This document shows, piece after piece, positions 1-19,955 of a DNA stretch of 32,000 nt. Numbering within the stretch: the first letter of the stretch is position 1; every line of letters begins with the position of its first letter. The notes beneath the pieces were generated by a model, which saw only the letters and a program-made list of their open reading frames with translations, was not told the origin of the DNA and searched no databases. The position numbers and the translations under genes are program-made. Source of the stretch: Geotalea uraniireducens Rf4 (GTDB lineage: Bacteria; Desulfobacterota; Desulfuromonadia; Geobacterales; Geobacteraceae); NCBI RefSeq assembly GCF_000016745.1, contig NC_009483.1, positions 3,330,001 to 3,362,000 on the forward strand, given 5' to 3'.

Positions 1-813
1 AAACAACCGCAGACCACAGCCAAACAGCATCTTGACAACTAGATTGTATGGATGGGAGAGCTGCTCCAGAATGGCGTCGATTTCCAGTCGGGAAAGCACC
101 GCCGGGATATAAAGTGACTTTTTCGCCCGCGGCACGTCTCGCAGCTCGCCGAAATCTCTTTGCAAGGCATGGCGGAAGAGAAACAGCAGGGAGTTGAATG
201 CCTGATTCTGGGTTGAGGCCGCGACATGGCATTTAACCGCCAGATAGGTCAGGTATTCCTTCACATCTGCGGTTGACAGCTCTTGCGGTGGCTTGTTCTT
301 CAGAAAGCGCTGGAACTGCCTCGACCAAAGTGCGTAAGTTTTCAAGGTTTTGCGGGAATAATGGCGCACCTTGATCTCCTCTGCCAGTTTCTCCAAAACC
401 GCATCCCACTCTGAGGAGTCGGACTTATCCTGGTACCCTGCCGGAGTATAAAAGGATTTGCGCTTGTATGCAGCCGGGATTTGCGGCAGATCAGAAACCG
501 GGTTTAACGATGACTGCGAATCTGTCCCATCGGCTGTTTCTTTACTAAGCATTTCCAGGCTTAGCATTTCAAAATATAGAAAAACGGCATGGATAGCCTG
601 CTGACGCTGCTGTGCCGTCTGCTTCTTTTCTAGTAACTTTTCTCCGAACAGACGAATTCGCTCTTTTTTAGACTCTGGTAGTGGATATTTAGAACAGAAA
701 TCGAGGAAATACCGCAACCATTTCTTGTATTCGTTATATCGGGAGGGTTGGATTTCCTTTTTGTTGAGGATCGCCTCAAATTGGCTCATAACAGCATTCG
801 GAATAGTAATCAT
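1..813 (-). CDS. intI: Integron-type tyrosine recombinase (IntI-like), N-terminal 271 codons; the 3' part lies beyond the left window edge
   Basis: The minus-strand frame is open from the ATG (complement of 811-813) to position 1. It is absent from the ORF track because it runs off the window. The translation is MITIPNAVMSQFEAILNKK...KVRHYSRKTLKTYALWSRQFQRFLKNKPPQELSTADVKEYLTYLAV..VAASTQNQAFNSLLFLFRHAL..RAKKSLYIPAVLSRLEIDAIL..LFGCGLRLF. The YSxKT..Y..W, STQNQA.N.LLFL and GLRL blocks match what I know of integron integrases. The gene is divergent from an attC-like array. The IntI-specific insertion lies outside the window. Confidence 0.75.
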   Translation of the reverse strand, partial: MITIPNAVMSQFEAILNKKEIQPSRYNEYKKWLRYFLDFCSKYPLPESKKERIRLFGEKLLEKKQTAQQRQQAIHAVFLYFEMLSLEMLSKETADGTDSQSSLNPVSDLPQIPAAYKRKSFYTPAGYQDKSDSSEWDAVLEKLAEEIKVRHYSRKTLKTYALWSRQFQRFLKNKPPQELSTADVKEYLTYLAVKCHVAASTQNQAFNSLLFLFRHALQRDFGELRDVPRAKKSLYIPAVLSRLEIDAILEQLSHPYNLVVKMLFGCGLRLF

Positions 814-960
814 TTATCGGCTCCAAGTTGAGAAGGCTCTCAGCTCAACGACGTCAGGTTGTCACATGTCATCCCTATCAAAAATACTTTGATGGTGTCA
901 ATAGGATACATTAATAAAAACAATTTGCATCAGCTTCTATTATGTTATAAGTTGCCTGAA
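814..960 (+). other. Candidate attI region (integrase-proximal recombination site plus a possible cassette promoter)
   Basis: This is the 174-bp spacer between the intI start and the first plus-strand ORF. It has three TGTCA motifs (859-900) and two GTT cores just upstream of the first ORF, GTTATAA (944-950) and GTTGCCT (951-957). GTTATAA resembles the GTTATGY R' cores of downstream sites. A sigma70-like pair is possible: TTGATG (889-894), 17 nt, TAATAA (912-917). The exact crossover point is not determinable by eye. Confidence 0.3.
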
Positions 961-986
961 TTAATAGGGCATTTCGGAGTGAGAGA

Positions 987-1373
987 ATGAAGACTCGGCT
1001 TAAATTGAAACCTGGTCAGAAAGGGACCAAAGGGCTTGTTGATGTCTATGGTGATGCTTTGGTTTGTGTTCGATACAGGTATGACGAGGAAAGTTGCTCA
1101 CGAATAAAAACTGTGGAGATCATTGTAGAGAAAAAGGACTGGACTCCCCCGAAACCGAGGTTTGCCGACGATGAGCTTGTTCCGGTGCGAATCGCATACA
1201 CTGAAAGCGAATTGAAAAGTATGGCAAAGTTGGCTGGCGGCAGGTGGGACCCGGGAAAAAGGTTATGGTCCATCCAGTTCGGAACGATTAAAGGCACAAA
1301 ACTGGAAAAGCATATAGTAATAGATGCCAAATTGGATAATGGAATAAATGAAAAAACAGGCAAAAGCATATAA
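987..1373 (+). CDS. Hypothetical 128-aa protein (first cassette ORF); C-terminal AKLAGGRWDPGKRLW motif
   Basis: Intact ORF with a GGAG Shine-Dalgarno about 6 nt upstream of the ATG. The ...ELKSMAKLAGGRWDPGKRLWSI... segment resembles the small AK.(A/G)G.(R)WD...K.W module seen at the ends of some primase/topoisomerase-associated proteins (DUF5710-like, from memory). Function unknown. Confidence 0.65.
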   Translation: MKTRLKLKPGQKGTKGLVDVYGDALVCVRYRYDEESCSRIKTVEIIVEKKDWTPPKPRFADDELVPVRIAYTESELKSMAKLAGGRWDPGKRLWSIQFGTIKGTKLEKHIVIDAKLDNGINEKTGKSI

Positions 1374-1449
1374 TATTAGATACCTTACAGGCATATAATA
1401 CTAGATGCTGGCATATAGTATTATAAACAAGCATCTAATAATAGATGCC
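1310..1449. repeat. Array of five 19-bp palindromic sites, consensus GCATMTA-RTAW-TAGATGC
   Basis: Copies lie at 1310-1328 (gcatatagtaatagatgcc, inside the 3' end of the CDS), 1366-1384, 1391-1409, 1411-1429 (degenerate right half) and 1431-1449. The last, gcatctaataatagatgcc, is a perfect 7-bp inverted repeat around ATAA. The last three are phased exactly 20 bp apart. Confidence 0.85.
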
Positions 1450-1528
1450 ACATGCTAACTGCTCAATAACACGTTGAGCAAATAATATAAAGAAATTAGG
1501 ATGTTACGCCACTTTATGAGGCTAACGA

Positions 1529-2704
1529 ATGACATTACAGCAGATCATAGCGCGTGGATACGAACAGAGAACAGCGAACAAGCCGTTGCCACCGTATATG
1601 TGGAAGGCCGCCGGACGAATCTCGGTTTGTCGGACGTCAACTCTTGGCGGCCACGTGCAGGCGTGCCCTGAGGGGCACGTTGAAAGGCACTGGTACAACT
1701 CCTGCCGGCACCGCGCCTGTCCCGTCTGCAACTATACTGCCACCGAACGATGGCTTGACAGCCAGAAAGAACGAATCCTCAACTGCGAACATTTTCATGT
1801 TGTTTTCACGCTGGACAGTGCGCTTGATCGCCTCTGGCTCGTCAATGTCCGGGCCATGACCAACATTCTTTTCCAGTCGGCCCGCGACACGCTCTTTGAA
1901 CTTTTGGGTGACGATAAATACCTGGGCGCCGAACCGGGCGTGATCATGGCGCGCCATACCTGGGGGCAGATGCTCGGCCTTCATCCGCATGTTCACTGCC
2001 TGGTATCGGGGGGCGGCCTGACCCAGAGCGGTGAATGGCGCAGTGTCGCCAACGGCTATCTGCTACCGGTGCGGGTCGTGCGCTCCCTGTTCTGCGGCAA
2101 GTTCCTCGATGCAATTCGCCGCGGAGTTGAGCGGGCAGAGCTGACCGTGCCGGATGGCGAGCGACCGCAGCAGGTTTTGAACCTGCTCAACAAGCTCGGC
2201 CGCAAGAAGTGGAATGTCTGCATCCGGGAGCGCTACGCGCACGGCAACGGTGTCTTGACCTACCTCGGCCGGTACTTGCGCGGCGGAGCCATTTCGAACC
2301 GCCGAATCATTTCGTCCGACGAAGAGCAGGTGCGTTTCCGCTACAAGGATTATCGCGAAGAAAGTGAGAGCGGCGGCAAGAAGTGCAAAACGATGGAGCT
2401 TAGCGTCAATGACTTTGTGCGCCGGGTGCTGCTGCATGTCCCGGAACCGGGCCACAAGGTGGTGCGTTCATACGGATTGTACGCGGGAAGCCGGCGCCAG
2501 GCCCTTGACCGCTGCCGGGAATTACTCGGGCAAGAACCGGTACAGGAGCCGAAGGCGCGCACATGGCAGGAATGCGTGGCGGGACTGGGAGAGACAAACC
2601 CCGGCCAATGCCCGGTATGCGGCTCACGGCTGGTGCAACGGGAGGTGTTTCGTCCGGAGTTCAGGGGCGAGACAAGGAAGTTTCCAATGAAAGAGGCGGC
2701 ATGA
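1529..2704 (+). CDS. IS91-family (Y2 HUH rolling-circle) transposase, apparently intact (391 aa)
   Basis: N-terminal Cys/His zinc-binding region (CRTSTLGGHVQACPEGH...YNSCRHRACPVC). HTWGQMLGLHPHVHCLVSGGGL is the HUH block and YLGRYLRGG is the double-Tyr block. There is a C-terminal CPVCG. The layout is typical of IS91/IS801-like transposases. Confidence 0.9.
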   Translation: MTLQQIIARGYEQRTANKPLPPYMWKAAGRISVCRTSTLGGHVQACPEGHVERHWYNSCRHRACPVCNYTATERWLDSQKERILNCEHFHVVFTLDSALDRLWLVNVRAMTNILFQSARDTLFELLGDDKYLGAEPGVIMARHTWGQMLGLHPHVHCLVSGGGLTQSGEWRSVANGYLLPVRVVRSLFCGKFLDAIRRGVERAELTVPDGERPQQVLNLLNKLGRKKWNVCIRERYAHGNGVLTYLGRYLRGGAISNRRIISSDEEQVRFRYKDYREESESGGKKCKTMELSVNDFVRRVLLHVPEPGHKVVRSYGLYAGSRRQALDRCRELLGQEPVQEPKARTWQECVAGLGETNPGQCPVCGSRLVQREVFRPEFRGETRKFPMKEAA

Positions 2705-3113
2705 GCAGGCAGCAAGAAGTGACTGACGATCAGCAGCCGGTGATGACGCATGCCTTAAAGACAGGAAAAACGAAGCTTCTGGGAGAGTCAAAGGCAAATC
2801 ACACCACCAAACCCGCCCAAGACAAGGAAGATTTCAGCGACGGCAACAATTTACTGACAAAAAAACCGTAAATCAGCTCTGGCGGTGACGAGAAAACTCC
2901 ATAGACCACAAAGAAAAAGCTCAACACTCGGATGGAACAGACGCGCCGATCAAGATCGCCGCTAAAGGCATGTTTTGGGGCGGCTTGCTGTTCATCCTCT
3001 AAAACGTTGAACTAAACCGCTTCGCGGTAGCTAAAAACCAATAAAGTCAAAGGCATAAAGGCGAATTAAAAGCAAATCCGAATTAAAACCGAAAATAAAC
3101 CCAAGACCCACTT

Positions 3114-3144
3114 AGGCAGCTTCTTATGAGGCTGCCTTTTTTTA
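3114..3144 (+). terminator. Stem-loop plus T-run (intrinsic-terminator-like; could also be an IS91-family end hairpin)
   Basis: AGGCAGC (3114-3120), a 10-nt loop, GCTGCCT (3131-3137), then TTTTTTT. It sits between the first IS91-type transposase and the recombinase gene. Confidence 0.5.
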
Positions 3145-3222
3145 TTGCCAAATCGAGACTACTCCTTTCATCGTACGTTTCACGGCCTGAGGGCCGAAAA
3201 ACCAAGAAAAGGAGAAACAATC

Positions 3223-4062
3223 ATGACTGACTTGCGACGAAGGATGATGGAAGATCTGCAACTTGCCGGGTACAGTGCGAGGACGCAGAAGAGCTACCTC
3301 GATGCAGTACGGGGACTGGCCAAGTATTACATGCGCTCCCCTGACCTGCTGTCGGAAGACGATGTACGCGGTTTCTTCCTGCACCTGCTCAAAGTGCGCA
3401 AAGCCGCCCGGAGCACCTTCACCATTTACCTGAGCGGTATCAAGTTCTTCTTTGAAACAACATTGCAGCGCAAGTGGAGTGTCTTTGGCATTACCAAACC
3501 GGCCAAGAGCAAACGGCTGCCGGTCGTGCTCTCCCGGAAAGAGGTCAGAACCTTACTTAAGAGCATCAAGAACCCAAGAGTAAAGATGGCGCTCACCATC
3601 ATCTATGCCTGCGGCCTGCGGCTCTCCGAAGGGGCACGGCTCAAGGTAAAGGACATCGACAGCGGCAGAAAGCTCCTCTGGGTGCGGGACGGCAAAGGCA
3701 TGAAAGACCGCTGTGTCCCCTTACCCAAAAGGCCACTGGAGCTACTGCAGACACACTATCGGCTTTTTGGCGCAGGTTCAGAGTATCTCTTCCCCTCCGG
3801 GGATGGCCACATCAACATCTGCACCATCCAGACCGCCTTCAGGGTAGCGGTAAGAAAAAGCGACATCGGCAAGACGGCCACCGTCCACACCCTGCGACAT
3901 TCCTACGCCACCCATCTTCTGGAAAACGGCGAGGACAGTGCCACCCTCAAGGAGATCCTCGGTCATAGCAGCATCACCACCACCAACATCTATCTCCACA
4001 TGACGGAGATGCTCACCGGCCGCCTCGGCAAGAGCCTGAACGAGCTGATGAGCGATCTTTAG
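3223..4062 (+). CDS. Tyrosine recombinase/phage-integrase-family protein, upstream partner of an IS91-family transposase
   Basis: I prefer the ATG at 3223, preceded by AAGGAGA, over the track start at 3145. The N-terminal SAM-like block is MMEDLQLAGYSARTQKSYLDAVRGLAKYY. Catalytic blocks are ACGLRLSE (Arg), HTLRHSYATHLL (H-x-x-R) and LGHSSITTTNIYLH (His/Tyr). The stop is 2 nt before the next transposase start. Confidence 0.85.
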   Translation: MTDLRRRMMEDLQLAGYSARTQKSYLDAVRGLAKYYMRSPDLLSEDDVRGFFLHLLKVRKAARSTFTIYLSGIKFFFETTLQRKWSVFGITKPAKSKRLPVVLSRKEVRTLLKSIKNPRVKMALTIIYACGLRLSEGARLKVKDIDSGRKLLWVRDGKGMKDRCVPLPKRPLELLQTHYRLFGAGSEYLFPSGDGHINICTIQTAFRVAVRKSDIGKTATVHTLRHSYATHLLENGEDSATLKEILGHSSITTTNIYLHMTEMLTGRLGKSLNELMSDL

Positions 4063-4064
4063 CC

Positions 4065-4611
4065 GTGGTCACGCTGGCTGATATCGTCACTGTTCATGGC
4101 GGCGACTATCTGCAGGAGTTCGGCACAAGGATACTCCCCAGCCACAAAAGGGCACTGGCAGATATTGTCGCCTGCCGCACCGAAAGCATGGGAGGACACG
4201 TCGATGAGTGTGAAGATTGCGGCCATCAACAATACCTCTACCACTCCTGCAAAAACAGAAGCTGCCCCAAGTGCCACGGCAGTGAGACCAGAATCTGGCT
4301 GACCAAGAGAGAAGGCGAACTCCTGCCGGTACGCTACTTTCATCTGGTCTTCACCCTTCCGTCAGAACTGCGGGACCCGGTACGCAAACACCAGAAGGTA
4401 CTCTACGCCATCCTCATGCAGGCAGCAGTGGAAACCCTCACCGCAATCGGACTCGATCCCAAGTTCGTCGGCGGCAAACTCGGCATCCTCGCCGTCCTGC
4501 ATACCTGGACAAGAGCTCTGGAGCACCATCCCCACGTGCATATGCTGGTCCCCGCCGGCGGACTTGATAAAGACGGCCAATGGCGGGAGTCCCGCAAGAA
4601 GTACCTCGTGC
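4065..4611 (+). pseudogene. IS91-family transposase, N-terminal fragment (split by an IS21 insertion)
   Basis: GTG start. Contains the CRTESMGGHVDECEDCGH..YHSCKNRSCPKCHG zinc region and HTWTRALEHHPHVHMLVPAGGL. The reading frame leaves the gene at 4611/4612, where the IS21 terminal repeat begins. Confidence 0.85.
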
Positions 4612-4678
4612 TGTCAATCGGCTTTGAATTTTGACCCACCATCGGCGTCCAATTTTGACCCACCCCAGGTAGTAGTTT

Positions 4679-5416
4679 TCAGTTATTGATCCTCGTTCTG
4701 ATTCTCCAGCTTTCGTTTCCGGTTTCGATTATCTCGCAGTGATGCGTGACCCTGTCCAGGAGAGCTGTCGTCATCTTGCCATCGCTGAACACCTGCGGCC
4801 ATTCACCGAAGGTCAGGTTTGTGGTGATGATGAGCGACGTCCTCTCGTAGAGCTTCGAGATCAGGTGGAACAGAAGCTGGCCGCCATTCTTGGAGAACGG
4901 CAGGTATCCCAGTTCATCAAGTATGACCAGGTCATGCCTGACCAGGTGTTCCGCCAGTTTACCACCTCTGTTGTCCAGTTTCTCCTGCTCAAGCTGGTTT
5001 ACCAGATCCAGTACGTTGAAGAACCTGGCTTTCCTTCCGTTTCTGATGCTCTGCTTGGCAATCGCTATGGCCAGGTGTGTTTTGCCGGTACCGGTGCCAC
5101 CGACCATGATGATGTTGGTGTGATCAGCGAGAAAGTTACCACTGTAAAGGTGCCTCACCTGCATCTCATTGACCGGTGAGGCCGTAAATTCAAACCGGTC
5201 CAGATCCTTATCCACGGGGAACTTCGCCAAGCCCATGCGATAGCGGATGCTTCTAGCCTTGCGCTCTGCCATCTCCGTTTCCAGAAGATCACAGAGGATC
5301 TTCTCCGGAGTGGCCCGGCTTTTTATGCCTGCCGCCAGTAGCTCGTCGAAGGTGGCCTTCATGCCGTACAGCCCAAGTGTTTCCATCGCCTCCATCAGGC
5401 GGTCACGCAGTACCAT
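4679..5416 (-). CDS. istB: IS21-family helper ATPase IstB
   Basis: Contains [19 protein letters not shown]..., Walker [12 protein letters not shown] and Walker [11 protein letters not shown] prefer the ATG at 5416 (GGGAGG 5 nt upstream), which overlaps the istA stop by 14 nt. The track start at 5458 is probably too long. Confidence 0.88.
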
Positions 5417-6923
5417 GCGCACCTCCCGAGAGGAGGCGGTCATAGCGGTAACAATCAACCACCGGGACCAGCTTGAGAAGCGGCAGTTGTGCTGACAGTT
5501 TCACTGGTTCCGGTTGCGGCTCGTCGTGTGTGCGGGACAGGATGCTGAGGATGACATCACTGCTGACCGTTTTATCGGAGAGAGCCTGCGTACAGGCAGT
5601 GGCTACTGCTTCCAGTCCGTAGCGGCTGACGACAGAGAGGATGCCGACGAACTGGCGGTCACCACCAGAACGTCCTTCCAATATTGTCCTGACTTCGCTC
5701 ATAGCTTCCGGCAGATCCCATCGTTTGAAGGGCGCTCCGTTTCGTAATGCTCCCGGCTTCTGCTCCAGAACAGCCAGATAGTGCCAGGGATCATAGATGA
5801 CTTTGTCACGGCCAAGATTGCGCTGGTGAACGCCGACAACTGTGCCATTCAGAATCATGCTGACATGGTTGGCGTATGCCCGCACCGAGACCGATTTGCC
5901 TACGGCCATAGCATTGACGCTGTAACGGTTGCGATCAAAGCTGATCAGCAGTTGCGATGAGACACGGACAAAGCTTTCCTGGTAGCCGTCGAAAGGAGAT
6001 ACCGGAAGTGCCAAGAGTTTGGTCTTCTCTTCGGCAAAGACCTGGTCAATGGTTCTCTCCTTGAACTCAGGATGCTTTGCTGTGGCGGCGTGATTGCGGC
6101 ATTCACCTTCCAGCCATTCGTTCAGCTCCTCAAGGGAGGCAAAGCGTCGGCGCTGAACGAAGAAGCGGTGCCGGACCACGCCAACCTGATTCTCCACCTG
6201 TCCCTTCTCCCAGCCGGCGGCAGGGGTACAGGCCACCGGTTCGAACAGGTAGTGGGAGGCCAGGTTCTGGAAGCGCCGGTTGAAGACCCGGTCCTTGCCC
6301 ATCAGTACCTTGGTGACAACCGTTTTAAGGTTGTCGTAGATGCCGCGTTTGCAGATACCGCCAAAGAATTCGAAAGCGCGGGAATGGGCATCAAGGACCA
6401 TCTCCAAACTCTCACGGGTATACGCGACACAGAACGGCTTGCGGCTGTGGCACAGACGGAAATGGGATACCTTCACTTCTACCGGCATACCACCCAGCTC
6501 CACCTTCTCATAACTCCAGTCGAACTGGAAGGCGTCACCGGGTTCCCATTCGAGAGGGATGAAGGCTTTGACTAAAGCCGTGCCATCGTCTTCCTTCCAA
6601 GTGCCCACATAACGACGTACAGCATCATAGCCTCCGGTATACCCTTCCCGCTGCAACTGCTCAAAAAGAATCTGGGCGCGACGACGATGTTTAACGGGTT
6701 TATCACGATCTTCCTTCAACCATTCTGACAGCCGTTCAACAAAAGAGCCGAGCTTGGGGCGGGGCTGTTCACTCCGCTCATACTTTTGGTCGGTTATGCC
6801 GCTACGGATAATGGATCGGACGGTGTTGCGGGACAGGTTGAACTCGCGGGTTATCTCACGAATTCCCTTGCCGTCTCTAAAATGAGCCTGACGGACTTTA
6901 CGGATGGTTTCCACGTTCAGCAT
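5403..6923 (-). CDS. istA: IS21-family transposase IstA (506 aa)
   Basis: N-terminal HTH ([20 protein letters not shown]). DDE-type core typical of IstA. Overlaps the downstream istB start. Confidence 0.9.
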
Positions 6924-7047
6924 CTCCTTTGTTTCTCCTCTCTCTGATGAAATCAGAGAGTATGGAGCAGAGTGCTGGGGTGGGTCAATTTTGGACGCCG
7001 ATTATGCTCGAAAGTGGGTCATTATTGCACGCCGATCCACATCGTGC

Positions 7048-7619
7048 CGGTGAAAGCCCTGTCAAAGGGCTTTCGCTACCGGTTCATGAAGATGGCCAGA
7101 AAAGCACTTCCCGAGGTGATCTTTCCTGGGCAAGTCTGGGACAAGGAGTGGGTGGTCTTCTGCAAACCGACCTTCAACCGGGCAAAAAAGGTGTTCCATT
7201 ACCTTGGCAGATACGTCCACCGCATCGCCATTACCAATAACCGTATTCTTGCCCTGGATAACGGTCAGGTCGTCTTCCGCTACCAGAATTCCGACACCAG
7301 AGAGTGGAAGAATATGCGGCTACCGGTAAAGGAGTTCCTGCGTCGCTACCTGCAGCACGTCCTGCCGCAGGGGTTTCACAAGGTCCGCTACTACGGACTT
7401 TTAAGTCCAGGAAATAGAGTAACCCTGAAACGGTTGCAGCTCCTGCTTGCAGAGAGAAGAAAGACAAAAGAAGAAAAGAACGAAGAGACTTCTCCGCCAC
7501 CGGCAGAGCGCCGCTGTCCCTGCTGTGAAGAGGGGACAATGGTGATAATCAGCTGGCTGCCGCGTAAAGCGAGAAGCCCGCCGCAAGGAAGGGCACGGAC
7601 AATAACGACAAAACAGTGA
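7048..7619 (+). pseudogene. IS91-family transposase, C-terminal fragment
   Basis: Continues the 4065-4611 frame exactly once 4612-7047 is removed: ...KKYLV-P-VKALSKGFRYRF... Contains YLGRYVHRIAITNNRI (double Tyr) and a C-terminal CPCCEEG. The reconstructed protein is about 372 aa. Confidence 0.85.
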
Positions 7620-10503: not shown

Positions 10504-10511
10504 GAAGAATC

Positions 10512-12200: not shown

Positions 12201-12221
12201 GTCGAACGGAAAGGAGGATAA

Positions 12222-12848
12222 ATGTATTGCACTCAATGCGGCGCACAAGCCGTCTCAGAAGCTAAGTTTTGTGCTAAATGTGGTGAGGCTTTAGGTACAA
12301 GTTCAGTAATAACTGAACCGGAACTTCCACTTTCACTTGCATCAATGCAGAATTCAAGCCCTGCCACTGATGACGCAAAGTGTGGACCAACTGGAGTCGG
12401 TGGCTGGCTAAAGTTGCTTGTCGTTGGAATGCTGGTGCTTGGACCGTTGATGGGGGCAGGCCGAATTGAAAATGATTTCATGATGGCAGAACATCAAAAT
12501 CCCAATATTACGTCATTGAATGAATGGAAAACCTTTAAAAATGCGACATGGTGGACATTTTACATAGTTGCCGCTATGAGCTTTTATGGCGGTTGGGGTT
12601 TGGCTCGGGGGCGCGACGTGTCAGTTGTAAATAGAGCCAAAGCTATCTTGTGGCTAACTGGCCCTGTTGCCTCAATTAACTTGGCAATAATTATACCATT
12701 CATAATTTTTGGTAAAACTGAAGCAGGCAATCCGCAATTTATTGGCGGATTCTTTGCGTCTGTAGTTGGAGCGATTATTTGGACGGTTTATTTGTCAAAA
12801 TCGAAACGGGTTCGTAACACTTATTGCAACTCTAAACATTTTATGTAA
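12222..12848 (+). CDS. Zinc-ribbon plus multi-pass membrane protein (DUF2569-like), 208 aa
   Basis: AGGAGG RBS. The N-terminal CTQCG...CAKCG is a zinc ribbon. A linker follows, then GVGGWLKLLVVGMLVLGPL and three further hydrophobic helices. Confidence 0.7.
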   Translation: MYCTQCGAQAVSEAKFCAKCGEALGTSSVITEPELPLSLASMQNSSPATDDAKCGPTGVGGWLKLLVVGMLVLGPLMGAGRIENDFMMAEHQNPNITSLNEWKTFKNATWWTFYIVAAMSFYGGWGLARGRDVSVVNRAKAILWLTGPVASINLAIIIPFIIFGKTEAGNPQFIGGFFASVVGAIIWTVYLSKSKRVRNTYCNSKHFM

Positions 12849-12884
12849 CCCCTAACTTCGGAGTACCCCCAAGTGGAGGTTAAT

Positions 12885-13235
12885 ATGAAACTGACTCAAT
12901 TTTCTCAAATAGAGTACAGCCGAATTCTGGATCTAAATGGCGCTCGCAATAAAGGCTATAGTCAATCTGAGTGTGAGAATATCCTTGTGGCAGCAGGAGC
13001 AACCACCATGCAGGCAAAAAATGGTGCTTATGTCTATTTGCACCATGGGTCAAAGATTTCAGCAACTCGAAGAGCATCTCGCTCAGAATATGAGCACCTC
13101 CTAAATGATTTTGAAGGAAGAGAGAAAGAATCTAAAGAATGTATCCAGCATTTGGAAAACATGGGCTTTAGCTACGGGCAAGCAAAAACTGCAGTGTATA
13201 ATTATCGTGTGAAGCACGGATTAATTGGTAAGTGA
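12885..13235 (+). CDS. Hypothetical 116-aa protein with an internal duplicated G(Y/F)S..QAK..Y.Y module
   Basis: I prefer the ATG at 12885, 4 nt after GGAGG (12876-12880), over the GTG at 12873. It lies 36 bp downstream of the membrane-protein gene, with no attC-like site between them. Confidence 0.6.
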   Translation: MKLTQFSQIEYSRILDLNGARNKGYSQSECENILVAAGATTMQAKNGAYVYLHHGSKISATRRASRSEYEHLLNDFEGREKESKECIQHLENMGFSYGQAKTAVYNYRVKHGLIGK

Positions 13236-13287
13236 GGTGATTAGGGGAGTCCCGGAGGGATCATCCCTTGATGATAAAAAGGCGAAA

Positions 13288-13360
13288 TCCCAACCAGGCA
13301 GTTGGACACCGGTCGGGCGGAAAGGCTGCCCGAACGGGTCAACTGCGCGGCCCGTTGGCG
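13288..13360 (+). other. attC-like site C (73 bp, family 2)
   Basis: TCCCAAC-cag-GCAGTTGGACACCGGTCGGGC-ggaaaggct-GCCCGAACGGGTCAACTGC-gcggccc-GTTGGCG. The left arm has bulged G and A. It is homologous to site D, with the inner stem switched (GTCGGGC/GCCCGAA in C versus CCAGCCC/GGGCTTG in D). Confidence 0.75.
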
Positions 13361-13438
13361 AAAAAAAGTCTAGGAGTCCAGGAACGTATTTCGATCAGCA
13401 GCAAAGAGTTCGTCACAGACCGTTAAGGGAGTATTTCG

Positions 13439-14758
13439 TTGGGAACAGAGATTGAGTTTGAAATCGGAGGGGCCAGCCTTAGCTGGAGCAAAAATTCACG
13501 CGGCATGGATCACGGTATGCTTTTCCAAGCGAAGGACCGGAAACGCCTCCACTCCGACCAGATTGACTATGATTACTTCACTGAAAATGGTCAGGATCCC
13601 GGCCTTATGGAAATGGCTCTTTGTAGGCCGCTCAAGGAGATCGTTCCTCGGATTGAACTCCTTGGTTTCACACTCAATGAGGTAGAACGCGAGTACAAGA
13701 AGTGCACTGAAAGCTGGCTTGAACAATGCCAGATGATGGCTCATGAGGTGGAAGAATTTTCAGAGCCGGATGTGATGACGTTCCAGGAGTTTTGTGCATT
13801 TGTTGCAGCGCACCCTATCCAAACTCTAGACCATTCATTTATCTCTTCATTCGATAATGCGGAAAGCGAGCGGAAAATCCAAGGCAGATTTGACGCCATG
13901 CCGGAAATACGAAGAATTCCTTATTTCCCATCAGCTATCGATAACACGTACTCTGAGCGCAGCTATTTTGCCGGCTTAGTCAATTTTATGCACCCTTACT
14001 CCACTCTCCGCCTTCTAGCGCAAAACATGTCAAACCTGAATGCGGACGTTGTGTGGCAGTATGGACCGTTGGTAGAAAATGGCTGGGCAAGCGAAAGTGA
14101 ATTTATACCTGATGCTCGAAGGAACCAGACTTTTCTGATAGCAACTGAAGGCAGTTCCGATGTCCATATTATCAAGCACGCTCTGTCACTGTTGAAGCAT
14201 GAAATCGCTGACTTTTTCAGGTTTATTGACGTGAGTGAGCGGCATCCATTCTCAGGTACAGGGAACTTAGTCAAGTTTGCTGAAGGGCTTGTTAAGATTG
14301 ATGTGCATAATCAGGTAGTTTTTGTGCTCGACAACGACGCCGAGGGTTTCGAAGCATATCAACGCATTTCGGATATGAACCTGCCCCCTAATATGCGAGC
14401 AATGATGTTACCGACATTGGAAGAGTTCCGCGCCTTTCCAGCTCGAGGTCCGGAAGGCGTGACTAATACTGATATTAATGGACGTGCGGCCGCGATTGAG
14501 TGCTATCTGGACCTTAACCTTCATGGTTTCGAGCCGGCAAAAGTAGTGTGGACTAACTACAAGAAGGAACTCGACCTCTACCACGGTGCTTTAGAATTCA
14601 AAGATTCCTATACCAAAGCATTTTTAAAGCAGACTGCCGAAACAGTATCGGCGGGAAACTATTCGGTGCACAAACTTCAAGTTGTGCTCGACGCACTTAT
14701 CGCTGAATGCTGTGCTGTCACCATAGAGGTAGGAAGAACAGGTCTAGGAGAGATATGA
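13439..14758 (+). CDS. Unknown N-terminal domain fused to a TOPRIM-like (OLD/DUF4435-type) domain, 439 aa
   Basis: TTG start giving MGTEIEFEIGGASLSWSKNS... The TOPRIM signature is a conserved Glu in FLIATEGSSD (E237, 14147-14149) and DxD in VFVLDNDAEG (D298/D300, 14330-14338). The N-terminal ~220 aa resembles my memory of the module called 'HEPN/Toprim-associated N-terminal domain'. There is no ATPase domain. Confidence 0.6.
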   Translation: MGTEIEFEIGGASLSWSKNSRGMDHGMLFQAKDRKRLHSDQIDYDYFTENGQDPGLMEMALCRPLKEIVPRIELLGFTLNEVEREYKKCTESWLEQCQMMAHEVEEFSEPDVMTFQEFCAFVAAHPIQTLDHSFISSFDNAESERKIQGRFDAMPEIRRIPYFPSAIDNTYSERSYFAGLVNFMHPYSTLRLLAQNMSNLNADVVWQYGPLVENGWASESEFIPDARRNQTFLIATEGSSDVHIIKHALSLLKHEIADFFRFIDVSERHPFSGTGNLVKFAEGLVKIDVHNQVVFVLDNDAEGFEAYQRISDMNLPPNMRAMMLPTLEEFRAFPARGPEGVTNTDINGRAAAIECYLDLNLHGFEPAKVVWTNYKKELDLYHGALEFKDSYTKAFLKQTAETVSAGNYSVHKLQVVLDALIAECCAVTIEVGRTGLGEI

Positions 14759-14791
14759 GGGGTCAACTATACAAATGATTTGAAGCGATGA

Positions 14792-14863
14792 TCCCAACAA
14801 GACAGTTGGACACCGCCAGCCCGAAAAGACTGGGCTTGCGGGTCAACTGCCGAGCCGTTATGC
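14792..14863 (+). other. attC-like site D (72 bp, family 2)
   Basis: TCCCAAC-aag-ACAGTTGGACACCGCCAGCCC-gaaaagact-GGGCTTGCGGGTCAACTGC-cgagcc-GTTATGC. See site C for the compensatory changes. Confidence 0.75.
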
Positions 14864-14983
14864 AGAAAATAAAACTTCCAATGATTTGGCGATTTCAACT
14901 ATTTCCTTGAGTTTAGAAAGTCGCTGCTTTTTGTTCCGACACTCGGAATAAAGTTCACAAATAAGAGCAAGACATTCAATTTC

Positions 14984-15628
14984 ATGCCTTCCAGGGAAAT
15001 TCGGACTATGCGTTACGCGCTCGACATCCAGAAAAGACAAATCGAACCTTCCTACTCCGGCCAGAGAGCTATTTGCCCCGGTTGCGGAGGAGAAGTTATT
15101 GGAAAGTGCGGATATATTGTTTCTGACCATTGGTCTCACCTTTCTGGGTCAGACTGCGACCCTTGGCATGAACCACTAACAAAGTGGCATCTGGAGTGGC
15201 AAAACATCCTTAAAAAATACCGAAATGCACAGATAGAGGCTGTAATTACAAAGCATGACATCTCTCATCGTGCAGACGCTGCGCTGCCAGACGGAACAAT
15301 TTACGAACTGCAACATTCAGGAATCTCACCAGAGGAAATCCATGAAAGAGAACAATTTTACGGCAAAAAACTGGTATGGGTGTTTGACGCAATTGAAGCC
15401 TATGTATCCGGGCGAATTGATTTAAGAGAGAAAGAAAACGGAAACTATACTTTTCGCTGGAAGCACCCCCGAAAATCCATAGCCTATGCACAAAGGAAGG
15501 TGTTTTTAGACTTCGGACTAGGCGAATTATTTGAACTTGAGTGGATGTCAAAAGAAACTCCTTGTGGTGGCAAAGGAAAACTAATTCAGTCTGCCACGGT
15601 TGCCGATTTCACTATATTTTCTGACTAA
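14984..15628 (+). CDS. CoiA-like competence-family nuclease (zinc ribbon plus PD-(D/E)xK-like), about 206-214 aa
   Basis: Contains CPGCGGEVIGKCGYIVSDHWSH, then HRADAALPDGTIYELQHSGIS (the D...E.Q.S block typical of CoiA-like proteins). The start is either 14984 or, perhaps more likely, ATG 15008 (MRYALD...). Confidence 0.6.
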   Translation: MPSREIRTMRYALDIQKRQIEPSYSGQRAICPGCGGEVIGKCGYIVSDHWSHLSGSDCDPWHEPLTKWHLEWQNILKKYRNAQIEAVITKHDISHRADAALPDGTIYELQHSGISPEEIHEREQFYGKKLVWVFDAIEAYVSGRIDLREKENGNYTFRWKHPRKSIAYAQRKVFLDFGLGELFELEWMSKETPCGGKGKLIQSATVADFTIFSD

Positions 15629-15638
15629 GAATGAGATG

Positions 15639-15698
15639 GCATAACCAGAAAAATGCACCTGCCCTAAAACCGGCAGGTGATTTTCCGAACCGTTGGAT
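15639..15698 (+). other. attC-like site E (60 bp, family 1)
   Basis: GCATAAC-cagaaa-ATGCACCTGCC-ctaaaacc-GGCAGGTGAT-tttccgaac-c-GTTGGAT. R' fits GTTRRRY. The preceding cassette starts with GTTATGC, which is complementary to this GCATAAC. Confidence 0.75.
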
Positions 15699-15824
15699 TA
15701 TTAAACTGAAATGGAATTATCTTCATGGGCGATTTCGCAAAGCAAGTACGACATAATAAAGTTCCTGGTCCAAATAAACTTAAGTTTGAACGAGCGGACT
15801 GGGAATCAATTCTGAAAAAGAATG

Positions 15825-17149
15825 GAGGGTGTAAAAAGGTTTGTGTAAATGGTCATTAGGGGGTACACCAAGTTACCCTAAGGAGATCACATGACTATTA
15901 ACACCGACGTAATCGACGACCTGCTCAAACATTACAAGACCCCCGAAGAGATTCTAGGGGAAAACGGGCTGCTGAAGCAATTGACCAAGGCTGTTCTTCA
16001 GCGGGCGCTCCAGGCTGAAATGACACTGCATCTCGGCCACGAGAAGCATGCTTCCGTTTCCGCCAAGGGTGGCAATGCACGCAATGGCTCGTCGGCAAAG
16101 ACCATCAAAGGCGATTTCGGCACCATGCCGATTGAGGTCCCTCGTGACCGGGATAGCAGCTTTGAACCAGTCATCATTCCCAAGGGCCAAACCCGGTTCG
16201 CCGAGTTCGATGATAAGATTATCTCTCTGTACTCCCGCGGGCTTACCACTCGTGAGATCCAGGGACACTTGGAGGAAATCTACGGTGTTGAGGTATCCCC
16301 CGCCCTGATTTCAATAGTGACTGAAGCAGTAGCTGAAGAGGTCAAAACCTGGCAGAACCGCCCGTTGGATGCGCTTTATCCCATCGTCTACATGGATGCC
16401 ATCAGGGTCAAAGCCAGAGGCAATGGCCATGTTGTGAACAAGGCTGTCTATCTGGCCATCGGCATCAACACAGACGGCGCCAAAGAAGTTCTGGGAATGT
16501 GGGTTTCCGAGAACGAAGGTGCCAAGTTCTGGCTTCAGGTTGTTACCGAACTAAAGAACCGTGGTGTCCAGGACATCTTCATTGCCTGCGTTGACGGCCT
16601 AAAGGGGTTCCCTGAGGCCATAGAGACCGTTTTCCCGAACACTCAGGTCCAGCTTTGCATCGTCCACATGGTACGCAACTCTTTGAAATTCGTCTCGTGG
16701 AAGCAGCGTAAAGAGGTCGCTGCTGATCTGAAGGTAATCTACCAGTCGGCGACAGCAGAGCAGGCCGAAATGGAACTGACGGCATTTGAGGCGAAGTGGG
16801 ATAAAACGCACCCGACTATCGGCCAGTCATGGCGCCGGAACTGGGAGCAAATCACGCCTTTTTTCGCTTATCCTGCTGATATCAGAAAGGTTATCTATAC
16901 CACCAACGCCATTGAATCCCTGAATATGTCGCTCAGAAAGGTGACCAAAAACCGGGGTTCGTTTCCCAATGACGAGGCAATGCTCAAGCTACTTTATCTG
17001 GCGCTGAAAAACATCGCGAAGAAATGGACCCTGCCGATCAGGGACTGGAAGGCTGCGATGAATCGCTTTTCCATCCTTTTTGAAGACAGAATGCCAAGCT
17101 ATTAAAAACCGGGAACCAAAACCATTTACACAAAACTATTGACAGGCCC
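15825..17149 (+). mobile_element. IS256-family insertion sequence (1325 bp)
   Basis: The left end is GAGGGTGTAAAAAGGTTTGTGTAAATGG. The reverse complement of the right end is GGGCCTGTCAATAGTTTTGTGTAAATGG. An 8-bp direct repeat AAAGAATG lies at 15817-15824 and 17150-17157. Confidence 0.85.
15891..17105 (+). CDS. IS256-family (mutator-type) transposase, 404 aa
   Basis: Contains LLKQLTKAVLQRALQAEMTLHLG..., YMDAIRVK, FIACVDGLKGFPEAI and TTNAIESLN. These are canonical IS256 transposase blocks. Confidence 0.92.
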   Translation: MTINTDVIDDLLKHYKTPEEILGENGLLKQLTKAVLQRALQAEMTLHLGHEKHASVSAKGGNARNGSSAKTIKGDFGTMPIEVPRDRDSSFEPVIIPKGQTRFAEFDDKIISLYSRGLTTREIQGHLEEIYGVEVSPALISIVTEAVAEEVKTWQNRPLDALYPIVYMDAIRVKARGNGHVVNKAVYLAIGINTDGAKEVLGMWVSENEGAKFWLQVVTELKNRGVQDIFIACVDGLKGFPEAIETVFPNTQVQLCIVHMVRNSLKFVSWKQRKEVAADLKVIYQSATAEQAEMELTAFEAKWDKTHPTIGQSWRRNWEQITPFFAYPADIRKVIYTTNAIESLNMSLRKVTKNRGSFPNDEAMLKLLYLALKNIAKKWTLPIRDWKAAMNRFSILFEDRMPSY

Positions 17150-17254
17150 AAAGAATGATATAGACGAAGAAGACATGCGTCTTGCAATTGCAGGAGGGAA
17201 AATGGGGTCAGGCTTCCAAGTTGACAAGTTGAAGAAAGGAGGTATCATTCCAGC

Positions 17255-17551
17255 ATGGCACGTAAACCACGCATCCATCTCCCCGGTGGACTTTACCACG
17301 TCATTTTCCGGAGTAACGGCGGTCAGCCCGTTTTCCTCACTGAAGATGACCGTTACCGTTTCTACCTCCTCCTCCAGGAAGGGACTTGTCGGTTTGGCTA
17401 CCGCGTTCACGCTTTCTGTCTCATGACCAATCATATCCATATCGCCTTGCAGGCCGGCGATATTCCCCTATCACGCGGCATGCACAATCTCTCATTCCGC
17501 TATACCCGCTGGATCAACTGGCGGGAAAAAAGAACCGGCCATCTTTTCTAA
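17255..17551 (+). pseudogene. Y1 (IS200-like/REP-associated, RAYT-type) transposase, N-terminal 98-aa fragment
   Basis: MARKPRIHLPGGLYHVIFRSNGGQPVF...AFCLMTNHIHIALQ (HUH)...FRYTRWINWREKRTGHLF, then a stop where homologues continue QGRYK... The truncation point abuts a 21-bp inverted repeat. Confidence 0.75.
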
Positions 17552-17557
17552 AGTCCT

Positions 17558-17578
17558 CTGGGGTCGGACCAAGCTAAC
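17558..17578 (+). repeat. Left copy of a 21-bp perfect inverted repeat (CTGGGGTCGGACCAAGCTAAC)
   Basis: Exact reverse complement of 19813-19833. Together the two copies bracket the second Y1 transposase gene. Confidence 0.9.
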
Positions 17579-17666
17579 ATGCCGCAATTATTTATTAATG
17601 CAGCAAATTAGACCCGTTTTTCAGCCTTAAAGGCATATTTTCATGGCAAAAAAGGGCCCCTAAATA

Positions 17667-17746
17667 ATGGCACGTGCGAACCGACATCATATTCCAGGGC
17701 AGGTGTGGCACATTACCCACCGTTGCCACAAAAAAGAATTTCTTTT
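17667..17746 (+). pseudogene. Second Y1/RAYT-like transposase, N-terminal fragment (split by IS4-family element)
   Basis: Reads MARANRHHIPGQVWHITHRCHKKEFL, then the IS4-type inverted repeat begins. Confidence 0.75.
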
Positions 17747-19081
17747 CAGTAACTTCCGGTTAGGTTTTTGCACGACGTTTCTTACGTTTCAACTGTCTAA
17801 TTTTGTTTGAGTTACCTTGTATTCTTGTGCGACGGCTCTGCTGTTCGGCTGCTGCTTCATTTGCAATCTGATTGCGTAATTCTCGTACCCTGCTAATGCT
17901 GACTGGCTCCTGGTGCTGCTCACGGCAATAGATGGCTAGCAGCAGATAGGTGATGAGACCACCAAGTATTTGAACCATGAGACCATATTCGCTTCTGGCA
18001 ATCAGGTGATACACCTTTAGGTGGCGTTTCCACCAACCGAAGAAGGTCTCTATGTTCCAGCGCAGTTTATAAACCTGGGCCACTTCTTCAGCCGTCAGGT
18101 CGTATCTGTTGGTTGCTACCCAGTAGTCCTTGCCGTCAATACGGTAACCAACAAGGCGCAGCTCTTTCTCAGTCTGGTTTATACCTTTGGTGCCGAGAAG
18201 TACTATCTGGTCATAGAAGACAATACTGTCAGGATTTACGGCATTCTCTCTGATGACGGTTTTGTGTGTATTCTCCCTGATACGGCAGACAAAAAACTTC
18301 TCGGCGGCCTGCCACTGGTCAAAGTGATTATGAGACTGATACCCACGATCCATGACACCGGTTTCGCCTTTGTCGATGATCTTATCAACAAAGGGGCGCT
18401 CACCCTCTTTACCGTCGGTCAGGAATATCTTCCTTGGAATACCACGGTTGATATCGAAGCCGATATGGGCCTTGGCCTTCTTAGAGCCGCTTCGGTAATC
18501 TGCCCATTCCATAGATAGAACAGCATCTATCAAAGAACCGTCTATGGATACCAGATTGCCAAGGTGAGCATATTCATCGGGAAGCACTCTGCCTGCTTGC
18601 TTGACAAGATGCCCGAATACCTCGGAAAGCTGTTCAAGACCACGGTTGTTGATTGCCTCAAAGAAAGAGCTCTTTTTGATTCCCTTGGGGGGAGCAACAC
18701 ATTCCTTGGCGAAGTCATCCTGATCCAGCGCCTGGAGAAGTTCGCTCCCGGAAGAGAACTCTTCCAAGTGATAAAAGATCAGGGCTTTTAGCTGATCATC
18801 GAAAGTCATTTGCAACGGGCGATACCCCCTGGATTCAAGTTCATTATCTGACTTGAATCTCTCAAAAATCGGGGTAAGAAGCAATTTGAAAGCGCGTGAT
18901 TTTCGTCTTTGTTTCAGTCGTTTGAACGGTCGCATATCGTAACTCCTGTAATATTGGATAGTTACGAGTGCGGACCACCGTTTTTTTACTCAAAGTCAAG
19001 CAAATAATGCGGTATAACGCTGATTTTACAACTTTTTTACATTCTCAAAGAACCTTGCAAAGACCAAACCGGACAATGCTG
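17747..19081 (-). mobile_element. IS4-family insertion sequence (1335 bp)
   Basis: The left end is CAGTAACTTCCGGTTAGGTTTTTGCA. The reverse complement of the right end is CAGCATTGTCCGGTTTGGTCTTTGCA. A 9-bp direct repeat ATTTCTTTT lies at 17738-17746 and 19082-19090. Confidence 0.85.
17760..18935 (-). CDS. IS4-family DDE transposase (391 aa)
   Basis: Contains VSIDGS, GVMDRGY and YKLRWNIETFFGWWKRHL (Y-x2-R-x3-E-x6-K), the DDE_Tnp_1-type blocks. Confidence 0.9.
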   Translation of the reverse strand: MRPFKRLKQRRKSRAFKLLLTPIFERFKSDNELESRGYRPLQMTFDDQLKALIFYHLEEFSSGSELLQALDQDDFAKECVAPPKGIKKSSFFEAINNRGLEQLSEVFGHLVKQAGRVLPDEYAHLGNLVSIDGSLIDAVLSMEWADYRSGSKKAKAHIGFDINRGIPRKIFLTDGKEGERPFVDKIIDKGETGVMDRGYQSHNHFDQWQAAEKFFVCRIRENTHKTVIRENAVNPDSIVFYDQIVLLGTKGINQTEKELRLVGYRIDGKDYWVATNRYDLTAEEVAQVYKLRWNIETFFGWWKRHLKVYHLIARSEYGLMVQILGGLITYLLLAIYCREQHQEPVSISRVRELRNQIANEAAAEQQSRRTRIQGNSNKIRQLKRKKRRAKT

Positions 19082-19088
19082 ATTTCTT

Positions 19089-19817
19089 TTGAAATTCGCA
19101 AAGGATAGACGGCGCTGGCATTCCTGGCTCTTTGAAGCCAAAAAGCGTTTTGGCTTGAGGATTCTCAACTACGTGGTTACCTCGAATCATATCCACCTTT
19201 TGGTGATCGATAGTGGGCCGGATGTTATTCCAAAGAGCCTTCAACTGATTGCCGGGAGGACTGCCCAGGAGTTCAATCATCGAAAAGACCGTAAGGGAGC
19301 ATTCTGGGAGGACCGTTATCATGCAACGGCTGTTGAGCGGAATGAACATCTGATTCGCTGCCTTGTTTACATCGATCTGAATATGGTTCGTGCCGGTGTG
19401 GTAAGCCATCCCGTTGAGTGGGAGATGAACGGATACAACGAGATCCAGAATCCGCCTGAACGATACGGGGTGATTGATATGTCCGGACTACGGAACCTTT
19501 GCGGATTTACAGACCCCGAGCAATTTGCAGAGCAGCATAGGCAGTGGGTTCATGAGGCAATCAACAATGGCAAAAATCAGCGGGAAAGTTGCTGGACAGA
19601 GAGCATCGCTGTTGGCAGTTCAGGTTTTATTGAAGAAACCAAGGCCAAGCTTGGCATAAAGGCGGCAGGGAGAAGGATCGCAGAACAACAGGAAGACCGG
19701 TTTGTACTAAAAGAAGAACATGCACCTTACAACGCCGGTTTTCGCAACCAAATGGGACTTCTAAGCCCAGAAAACAGCTATTTTTTGGACGTTTCTCTTT
19801 TAGATTTCGCGAGTTAG
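19089..19817 (+). pseudogene. Second Y1/RAYT-like transposase, C-terminal fragment
   Basis: In frame with 17667-17746 after removing the IS and one TSD: ...HKKEFL-L-KFAKDRRRW... Contains VVTSNHIHLLV (HUH) and GAFWEDRYHATAV (catalytic Tyr block). The stop codon TAG (19815-19817) lies inside the right 21-bp inverted repeat. Confidence 0.8.
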
Positions 19818-19833
19818 CTTGGTCCGACCCCAG
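19813..19833 (-). repeat. Right copy of the 21-bp perfect inverted repeat
   Basis: GTTAGCTTGGTCCGACCCCAG is the reverse complement of 17558-17578. Confidence 0.9.
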
Positions 19834-19843
19834 GCCCCCCTCC

Positions 19844-19907
19844 GTTTGCCCTGACACCCTGTGTTTGCCCTGACACCCTGTGTTTGCCCTGACACCCTGT
19901 GTTTGCC
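19844..19907 (+). repeat. Tandem repeat, 19-bp unit GTTTGCCCTGACACCCTGT x3 plus a 7-bp partial copy
   Basis: Three perfect copies at 19844-19862, 19863-19881 and 19882-19900, then GTTTGCC running directly into the left arm of attC-like site F. Confidence 0.9.
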
Positions 19908-19955
19908 ATTGACCTGCCCTAACAACCCGGCAGGTCAATGGCTGGCCCGTTAGCG
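19905..19955 (+). other. attC-like site F (family 1, lacking a recognisable R'')
   Basis: GCCATTGACCTGCC-ctaacaaccc-GGCAGGTCAATGGC is a perfect 14-bp stem, followed by tggccc-GTTAGCG. The stem and loop are homologous to sites B and E (..CACCTGCC-ctaaaacc-GGCAGGTG..). The RYYYAAC side is replaced by the 19-bp tandem repeat. Confidence 0.5.

Follow-up and report, generated by a model that had tools for sequence, protein, structure and literature searches.

What kind of element joins, on one replicon of Geotalea (Geobacter) uraniireducens Rf4, the gene of a site-specific recombinase to a one-way series of short palindromes? The question is raised by a stretch of 32,000 nucleotides (contig NC_009483.1, positions 3,330,001 to 3,362,000, forward strand; hereafter the window), for which an original prediction, made from the letters alone, had proposed a chromosomal integron, with an integrase gene (intI), an attachment site (attI) and gene cassettes closed by attC sites. 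We agree with this proposal and give a probability of about 0.92 that positions 1-19955 are a chromosomal integron. The integrase family and its specific additional domain, the architecture, covariation and single orientation of the sites, their restriction to the cassette side of intI and the scar that recombination left at the cassette junctions are all established, and an attI site completes the picture; that the integron still recombines today is what we infer from its sequence. The platform comprises the following features.

1-813, minus strand: 5' part of intI, the first 271 of 452 codons, the remainder lying beyond the start of the window.
814-986: putative divergent promoter region between intI and orfX, containing a palindrome that resembles a LexA box (857-874) and a site resembling a promoter (859-888, plus strand).
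987-1373, plus strand: orfX, encoding 128 amino acids, of which the C-terminal half weakly matches DUF5710.
1310-1327, 1366-1383, 1391-1408, 1411-1428 and 1431-1448: five copies of the 18-bp palindrome GCATATAATAnTAGATGC.
1455-1479, plus strand: simple site of attI, CTAAC-T-GCTCAATAAC-AC-GTTGAGC, with the R box GTTGAGC at 1473-1479.

Thus intI is read leftward, and on the other side of the divergent promoter region come orfX, the five palindromes, attI and seven cassettes closed by sites that we call Z and A to F.

The open reading frames (ORFs) of the window were scanned against Pfam and NCBIfam. As proposed, the integrase fragment is divergent from the plus-strand array and matches TIGR02249, the integron integrase model; the match covers positions 1-132 of the 315 in the profile, so the insertion specific to IntI proteins cannot be shown by the fragment alone. 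The complete protein supplies it. The 271-residue translation of 1-813(-) is 100% identical to a protein of 452 amino acids (P0001, "integron integrase [Geotalea uraniireducens]"), which matches TIGR02249 without interruption from position 1 to 313 of 315 and scores 355.5 bits (curated cut-off 265). Its best match among solved structures is VchIntIA (PDB 2a3v, E = 2.8e-65), and this alignment, which shows every catalytic residue (R, K, HxxR, H and Y), runs unbroken through residues ~322-369 (DLVAGYDGVFLDDAVERKYPNAAKEFIHQWFFPQQSL...), the additional domain. In contrast, the alignment of archaeal XerA is broken into two pieces, with residues 313-369 left out. The insertion expected of the complete recombinase is therefore present, where recombinases of the Xer type split. 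The gene of P0001 is carried on a contig of 5,136,364 bp, and housekeeping-type genes follow from ~20.9 kb of the window; the location of the integron is chromosomal. P0001 also bears an N-terminal extension of ~138 amino acids with a second Phage_int_SAM_4 stretch, found in related loci with and without orfX alike. Residues 1-138 align weakly with the protein's own core-binding domain (25% identity, E = 0.014), which suggests that the extension in this clade of IntI may be an internal duplication of the SAM-like domain.

The recombination sites were searched for in two ways. A scan collected pairs of AAC and GTT flanked by R-box-like sequence, and the candidates were then folded under DNA parameters. 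A covariance model, R1, was built from an alignment (A4) of 12 sites of the B/E/F type, or family 1, gathered by the pattern ACCTGNC...GNCAGGT, the core of B, E and F that recurs in related loci; it was run on the window and 84 loci (1.21 Mb), matches being accepted at E <= 1. For IntI relatives, 80 related intI loci were kept, the Rf4 locus itself not being among them. A single MAFFT alignment of all seven sites (A2) was tried and rejected, its 3' arms being out of register; family-specific alignments therefore replaced one cross-family model. The sites, all on the plus strand, are these.

2919-3012, plus strand: attC Z, 94 bp, R'' GCTCAAC, R' GTTGAAC, from the R-box/hairpin scan.
7853-7918, plus strand: attC A, 66 bp, R'' GTCCAAC, R' GTTATGT.
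12142-12200, plus strand: attC B, 59 bp, family 1, R1 61.7 bits, E = 1.8e-15.
13288-13360, plus strand: attC C, 73 bp, family 2, R1 E = 0.0018, family alignment A6.
14792-14863, plus strand: attC D, 72 bp, family 2, R1 E = 3e-4.
15639-15698, plus strand: attC E, 60 bp, family 1, R1 71.5 bits, E = 1.4e-18.
~19894-19955, plus strand: attC F, family 1, last site of the array, R1 51 bits, E = 4.8e-12.

At least six attC-like sites had been announced; A to F are all upheld, and Z, longer than the 59-73 bp range of A-E, may be a further one. The seven sites keep one orientation throughout and bound seven cassettes; they form two families (B/E/F and C/D) and two singletons. In the scan, D, E, Z and A ranked highest on the plus strand of the window. 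In six of seven sites the bottom strand folds more stably than the top one; fold z-scores run from -1.7 (Z, A) to -4.8 (F), with -3.5 for B; Z is a long imperfect hairpin. Characterised attC sites carry extrahelical bases on the arm opposite the AAC triplet (PMC5027507), and the left-arm bulges noted earlier lie on exactly that arm in our bottom-strand folds: B, E, C and D have unpaired bases on the bottom-strand 3' arm (the R''/L'' arm), opposite AAC, namely one at position 16-17 from the start of R'' in B and E and two, at positions 18 and 21, in C and D. The further statement that a palindrome follows each ORF is right as to the reality of A-F, but many of the ORFs encode transposases, and in two of the cassettes there are two ORFs. 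The place of the R'' of F is taken by a 19-bp tandem repeat (GTTTGCCCTGACACCCTGT, ~3.4 copies, ~19840-19905) that resembles the left arm of this site.

Selection on structure over sequence, which had been deduced from paired stem substitutions, is strongly supported in both families when set against shuffled alignments. B and E differ by CACCTGAC/GTCAGGTG versus CACCTGCC/GGCAGGTG, as described; between C and D, three aligned inner-stem pairs are changed on both sides, and this has the support of the whole family. In family 1, 96% of cells are paired (A4, 12 sequences), with 6 pairs and 23 cells changed on both sides, none of 500 shuffles being as good and slid controls reaching 20-39% paired; this result is not circular, since none of the covarying positions is among the letters fixed by the search pattern. 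Family 2, aligned independently with MAFFT (18 sequences), is 92% paired, with 10 pairs and 48 double-change cells (again 0/500 shuffles as good), and conserves its two bulged left-arm columns. An alignment of 70 sequences, fitted to the model R1, has 95% of cells paired and 191 double-change cells. The attC families of integrons of the Desulfuromonadales type thus are lineage-wide and strongly covarying.

Short G+C-rich hairpins downstream of ORFs could also be generic repetitive extragenic palindromes (REPs) or terminator hairpins, possibly the substrates of the REP-associated tyrosine transposase (RAYT) encoded at 17255-19817, and stand near a recombinase gene by coincidence. A RAYT-like gene is indeed present in the region, and related arrays (L085, L006) contain Y1 genes as well. 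The distribution of the sites nevertheless leaves this explanation hardly credible. R1 gave 70 matches. The loci oriented with intI on the plus strand account for 57 of them, and all but one of these (56) have the side and orientation of the cassettes, upstream of intI and on the minus strand; the remaining one is 0.5 kb downstream of intI, the only match in ~0.7 Mb of intI and downstream control DNA. In loci oriented by orfX, every match is on the plus strand and downstream of that gene. R1 recognises B, E, F, D and C alone in the window, and nothing beyond F up to 32000, while elsewhere its matches cover ~30 other genomes. The model was trained on family 1 and also recognises family 2, as it matches C and D and its longer matches are C/D relatives. 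A cruder scanner found 0.43 sites/kb on the cassette side versus 0.16/kb downstream; it also flags ~7 hairpins in coding sequence within 32 kb and was therefore restricted to this comparison of the two sides. Moreover, the AAC/GTT boxes obey the cassette-junction rule in a single orientation, and the repeats flanking the RAYT gene (GGGGTCGGACCAAGCTAAC) are unrelated in sequence to the attC sites. Dispersal as REP elements had been named as an outcome that would refute the integron, and in the 1.21 Mb surveyed the palindromes do not behave in this way. One site, in L009, is 96% identical to C over 73 bp with unrelated adjoining DNA; its R' is GTTATAT instead of GTTGGCG, as expected if the neighbouring cassette supplies R'.

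The junction rule itself is the most specific trace of recombination. As integron integrases cut and join at G|TT, the six bases after the G belong to the next cassette, so that R'' of a site should pair with the R' that precedes the cassette. The earlier observation that each cassette start is complementary to the R'' of its own 3' site follows this rule, and it can be extended to Z and attI: taking attI, Z and A-E in order, 19 of 24 variable positions are complementary between R'' and the R' before it, versus 6 of 24 between R'' and the R' of the same site, and only 4 of 720 permutations reach 19. This match is hard to explain save by integron-type recombination. The R box of attI, GTTGAGC, is the exact complement (7/7) of the R'' of Z, the first attC.

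The attI-like spacer had been placed next to intI, and here the original prediction did not hold: attI lies instead at 1455-1479, after orfX and five palindromes. Its two inversely oriented boxes, GCTCAATAAC and GTTGAGC, have the form of an attI simple site (PMC3146285), and related loci share, past their repeat arrays, the motif CTAAC..(G)CTCAATAAC-NN-GTTRRRY, with homology between loci ending just beyond it; crossover would take place between G1473 and T1474. An attI between intI and orfX (GTTGAGA, ~827-833) was considered and rejected because orfX and the simple site downstream of it are conserved as a unit across loci.

Z and A deserve a separate discussion, as each lies 215-235 bp downstream of a transposase gene of the IS91 family, an insertion sequence (IS) family with structured ends. 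They could be the terminal hairpins of these elements, in which case the array would start at A or B; in keeping with this, R1 matches neither and their fold z-scores are weak. We regard this as quite improbable. The R'' of Z is perfectly complementary to the R box of attI. Of four variable positions, three are complementary between the R'' of A and the R' of Z, and likewise three between the R' of A and the R'' of B. Z and A have no detectable similarity to each other or to the DNA downstream of the related transposase gene of L076. Finally, the homologous IS left end abuts the GTTGAAC of undisputed att sites in two other integrons, L011 and L019.

Several observations weigh against the integron reading. 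The Rfam scan of the window gave zero families at the gathering score, Rfam holding no attC family, and no convincing cassette promoter (Pc) directed into the cassettes was found in the region scanned. The proposed borders RYYYAAC...GTTRRRY hold broadly for A-E, which start with R'' boxes of the xYYYAAC type and end with GTT R' boxes, but the R' boxes of B (GTTGGCA) and C (GTTGGCG) have two mismatches to GTTRRRY, and F, with its perfect 14-bp stem and R' GTTAGCG, has no recognisable AAC-type R''. Z and A, with folds marginally better than shuffles, rest on R-box logic and position. In the DNA surveyed the palindromes do not behave as dispersed REP elements, but their dispersal elsewhere in the Rf4 genome is excluded only indirectly, from the related loci. 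The heavy load of IS may also mean that the array is decaying. The cassettes are as follows.

1474-3006, plus strand: cassette 1, bounded by attI and Z, with an IS91-family (Y2 HUH) transposase gene at 1529-2704.
3007-7912, plus strand: cassette 2, an IS91-family element with a tyrosine recombinase gene (3145-4062) and a transposase gene (4065-4634 and 6972-7619).
4679-5458 (istB) and 5403-6923 (istA), both minus strand: IS21 splitting the element of cassette 2.
7913-12194, plus strand: cassette 3, with a HEPN-like ORF (7938-8558) and a superfamily-2 helicase (8621-9187 and 10541-12055).
9248-10489: transposase gene of the ISL3 splitting the helicase of cassette 3.
12195-13354, plus strand: cassette 4, with a DUF2569 membrane protein (12222-12848) and an ORF without assigned family (12873-13235).
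13355-14857, plus strand: cassette 5, with a HEPN/Toprim protein (13439-14758; PF18871, E = 1.9e-81).
14858-15692, plus strand: cassette 6, with a CoiA_N-like protein (14984-15628).
15693-19949, plus strand: cassette 7, mostly IS DNA, with an IS256-family transposase gene (15891-17105) and Y1/RAYT-like fragments (17255-17551 and ~17668-19817).
17760-18935, minus strand: IS4-type element splitting the second RAYT-like fragment.

The genes of the cassettes have a G+C content of 32-47% (32-44% in cassette 3) versus 52-64% in the flanking chromosome, and this contrast marks the cassettes as foreign in origin. The product of 1529-2704 matches NF033538 (373.6 bits), Y2_Tnp and Zn_Tnp_IS91. The recombinase of 3145-4062 scores 198 bits on TIGR02249, in two stretches, and belongs to the IS91-type element, not to the integron. 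From ~20.9 kb ordinary chromosomal genes (alkaline phosphatase and others) take over. Farther on, between two converging housekeeping genes, a run of the heptamer (AGGTGCG)n faces a partly complementary CCTCG-rich run (31085-31184).

An inert relic would be an integron by descent, with a frozen array in which IS accumulate and attC sites persist by inertia. In line with this, at least six IS-type elements occupy 18 kb and interrupt the helicase gene and another IS, two cassette genes being split and three gaps between neighbouring attC sites being stretched beyond 4 kb. Only seven cassettes are left, the last closed by the incomplete F, and a locus from another sequencing run (L001, Logan assembly) is identical over 2.8 kb, with no variation seen. 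On the other hand, intI is not truncated, its product retains every catalytic residue and clears the cut-off of the family by a wide margin, the complementarity between R'' and the preceding R' is nearly intact, the attC stems are 92-96% paired, and orfX, the repeats and attI are intact. A relic is thus an unlikely description, less so than the two preceding alternatives, and we retain a chromosomal integron that is probably still active as the preferred reading.

If established integron biology is applied to the locus, the bottom strand of each attC would fold into a hairpin in which R'' pairs with R' and extrahelical bases stand opposite AAC. IntI would cleave the bottom-strand AAC between A and C, that is G|TT on the top strand. 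Recombination between two attC sites would then excise a cassette as a circle, and recombination between attI and attC would insert one at G1473|T1474. Cassettes would be transcribed from a promoter upstream of attI, most likely the predicted promoter of orfX. Later, IS-type elements, at least six in number, colonised the array, splitting two cassette genes and widening the attC spacing. About 4 kb is also the clustering distance of automated integron finders, which might fragment this array for that reason.

As to what the cassettes bring, HEPN (pEK499_p136-like) and superfamily-2 helicase domains (7938-12055) and the HEPN/Toprim protein (13439-14758) are of the type found in conflict systems. 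From their domains, a role in defence is plausible for cassettes 3 and 5; PADLOC, run on the cassette proteins, gave only weak helicase-domain matches, so no defence system can be named. Compared with related loci, cassette DNA matched in its attC parts only and no shared cassette gene was found, which leaves no direct case of one cassette in two genomes.

The left end of the element in cassette 2 (3013-3145, TAAACCGCTTCGCGGTAGC...) stands directly after GTTGAAC in three integrons: at Z in the window, at an attC in L011 (6640-6777(-), where only the end sequence of the IS91-type element is present) and at an attI in L019 (contig end). IS91-family elements have GAAC as target. The recurrence may thus reflect insertion at a GAAC target that coincides with a common R', or the module may travel as a cassette. 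A similar pair of recombinase and IS91 genes lies on the cassette side of intI in L076.

Y1 genes of the RAYT/IS200-like type occur in the cassette arrays of three integrons (window 17255-19833, L085 9675-10355 and L006 ~2440-2640). The one in the window is flanked by the inverted repeat GGGGTCGGACCAAGCTAAC (17559-17577 and 19815-19833). A C-rich motif (..GGGTAGCCGGGGGTYTTAGCCCCCCAGCCCCC..) is found at 19822-19855 and 20758-20815 of the window, at 8640-8679 of L048 and at 2604-2642 of L006, that is just past the end of the array in the window and within the arrays of L048 and L006. It is directly upstream of the RAYT-like gene in L006, and a related stretch follows the RAYT gene of the window.

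The gene that separates intI from attI belongs to the platform. In many related loci the 200 bp upstream of intI open a divergent ORF (MKTRLKLKPGQKGTK...), the homologue of 987-1373. By tblastn, orfX is present in 25 of the 80 related loci, always divergent from intI and 100-350 bp away, and absent from the others. Look-ups starting from orfX gave L083 with a degraded intI adjoining, L084 and L085 with intI adjoining and L086-L088 without intI; in each of these contexts it stands first in a series of small ORFs on one strand, none with a Pfam match. Being at the head of arrays in every such locus, orfX is a part of the platform and not a cassette. The OrfX family counts more than 1100 members of ~115-130 amino acids, all unnamed. 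An exact-sequence look-up of orfX matched no record. The AlphaFold model of OrfX has a mean predicted local distance difference test score (pLDDT) of 72.8, with ~88 in the DUF5710 part, and comparison with PDB and BFVD gave no significant structural match apart from weak DUF5710 proteins.

The palindromes accompany this gene. The nine strand-matches of GCATATAATAnTAGATGC in the window all lie within 1310-1448, where 0.02 would be expected by chance, and the first copy is inside orfX, of which it encodes the conserved C-terminal EKHIxxDA. Arrays of ~18-bp palindromes, 4-7 copies each, are found 3' of orfX in every related locus, with a sequence specific to the subclade (TTCCTATATAGGAAAC, GCATCCCATATGGGATGC and TTTATAATACTATAAA in other loci). 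In the 800 bp upstream of intI, the most repeated 14-mer has a median of 4 copies in 22 loci with orfX versus 2 in 32 loci without it. The arrays thus go with orfX and not with IntI as such, which suggests that the palindromes are operators of OrfX. By binding them, OrfX may regulate read-through or assist recombination at attI. One could go further and propose that OrfX (~120 amino acids, DUF5710-type) and the 4-7 palindromic 18-bp operators it recognises are a fourth conserved component of the platform in a large environmental clade (Geobacterales, Desulfuromonadales and some Nitrospirota), which gates transcription from platform to cassettes or builds the attI synapse like an arm-site accessory factor; this is a tentative idea that we hold to be possible but on balance doubtful. 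In the literature searched we found no description of an accessory module of this kind for integrons, no paper on DUF5710 or orfX in integrons and none on an integron in G. uraniireducens or "uraniumreducens". The orfX and repeat module is possibly the sole new element of this integron.

The region between intI and orfX offers hints on regulation. The palindrome at 857-874 has one mismatch to GGTTN2CN4GN3ACC, which we take to be the LexA box of the Geobacter type, and overlaps the promoter-like site facing orfX. The motif is exact in L006 (9936-9953), L008 (739-756) and L040 (6704-6721), and in these three loci as in the window the palindromes sit 45-65 bp upstream of the intI start codon. One-mismatch matches across the whole window are not above chance. 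SOS control of the integron may exist. The only candidate for Pc is a sigma-70-like 9/12 match at 859-888(+), upstream of orfX, such matches being no commoner in the region scanned than in shuffled sequence. An inverted repeat, GTTGAGA-N9-GCTCAAC (827-849), precedes the start codon of intI by 14-36 bp. Its 7-mer is that of the R box of attI and of R'' in Z, and the repeat is not conserved in the related loci inspected.

How does this locus compare with known systems? Integrons are on record in Geobacter, with intI genes in G. metallireducens, G. sulfurreducens and G. lovleyi (PMC2426708; PMC3001079). With these and other sedentary chromosomal integrons (PMC2426708; PMC3001079; PMC4889954; PMC5027507), our locus shares the additional domain of IntI, the divergence of intI and cassettes, an attI ending in GTTRRRY, attC sites with R and L boxes, an unpaired spacer and extrahelical bases, attC families shared within the lineage, and promoterless cassettes mostly of unknown function and low G+C content. 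It differs from them by its seven cassettes with two attC families versus one homogeneous type, by the 452 amino acids of its clade's IntI versus ~320-337 (N-terminal ~138 amino acids extra), by the gene and palindrome array between intI and attI and by a very high density of IS. With the large sedentary integrons of the Vibrio type it has the chromosomal location in common, whereas it lacks their long array (tens of cassettes) and highly homogeneous attC sites.

The attI1 site of class 1 integrons consists of a simple site and the direct repeats DR1 and DR2 (PMC3146285, summarising Partridge 2000 and Gravel 1998). As in attI1, two inverse 7-bp boxes, the left one with an extra base, are preceded here by repeated accessory sites. 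Unlike those of attI1, these sites are 4-7 palindromes of 18 bp, unrelated to the core site and starting inside orfX. As they co-occur with orfX rather than IntI, they look like operators of another protein and not like the DR sites of IntI. The boxes of attI1 are CCTAAAAC..GTTAGGC, to be compared with GCTCAATAAC..GTTGAGC here.

Mobile elements recurrent at integron recombination sites are known in the form of the attC-targeting IS1111-attC elements and group IIC-attC introns (PMC3001079), but the element found here in three integrons is of the IS91 family (HUH Y2) and has its own tyrosine recombinase. The dispersed, RAYT-flanking palindromes in both orientations that are typical of a REP/RAYT system were not seen in 1.2 Mb, and the RAYT gene here is flanked by another repeat. 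Altogether, the element is an ordinary integron, and its intI is already annotated as an integron integrase by NCBI. What goes beyond the textbook are the orfX/palindrome module, the SAM-like extension of ~138 amino acids in IntI and the recurrent IS91-type element at GTTGAAC; should the first of these prove to be a true regulator or recombination accessory factor, the picture of a minimal platform would change for a large group of environmental integrons.

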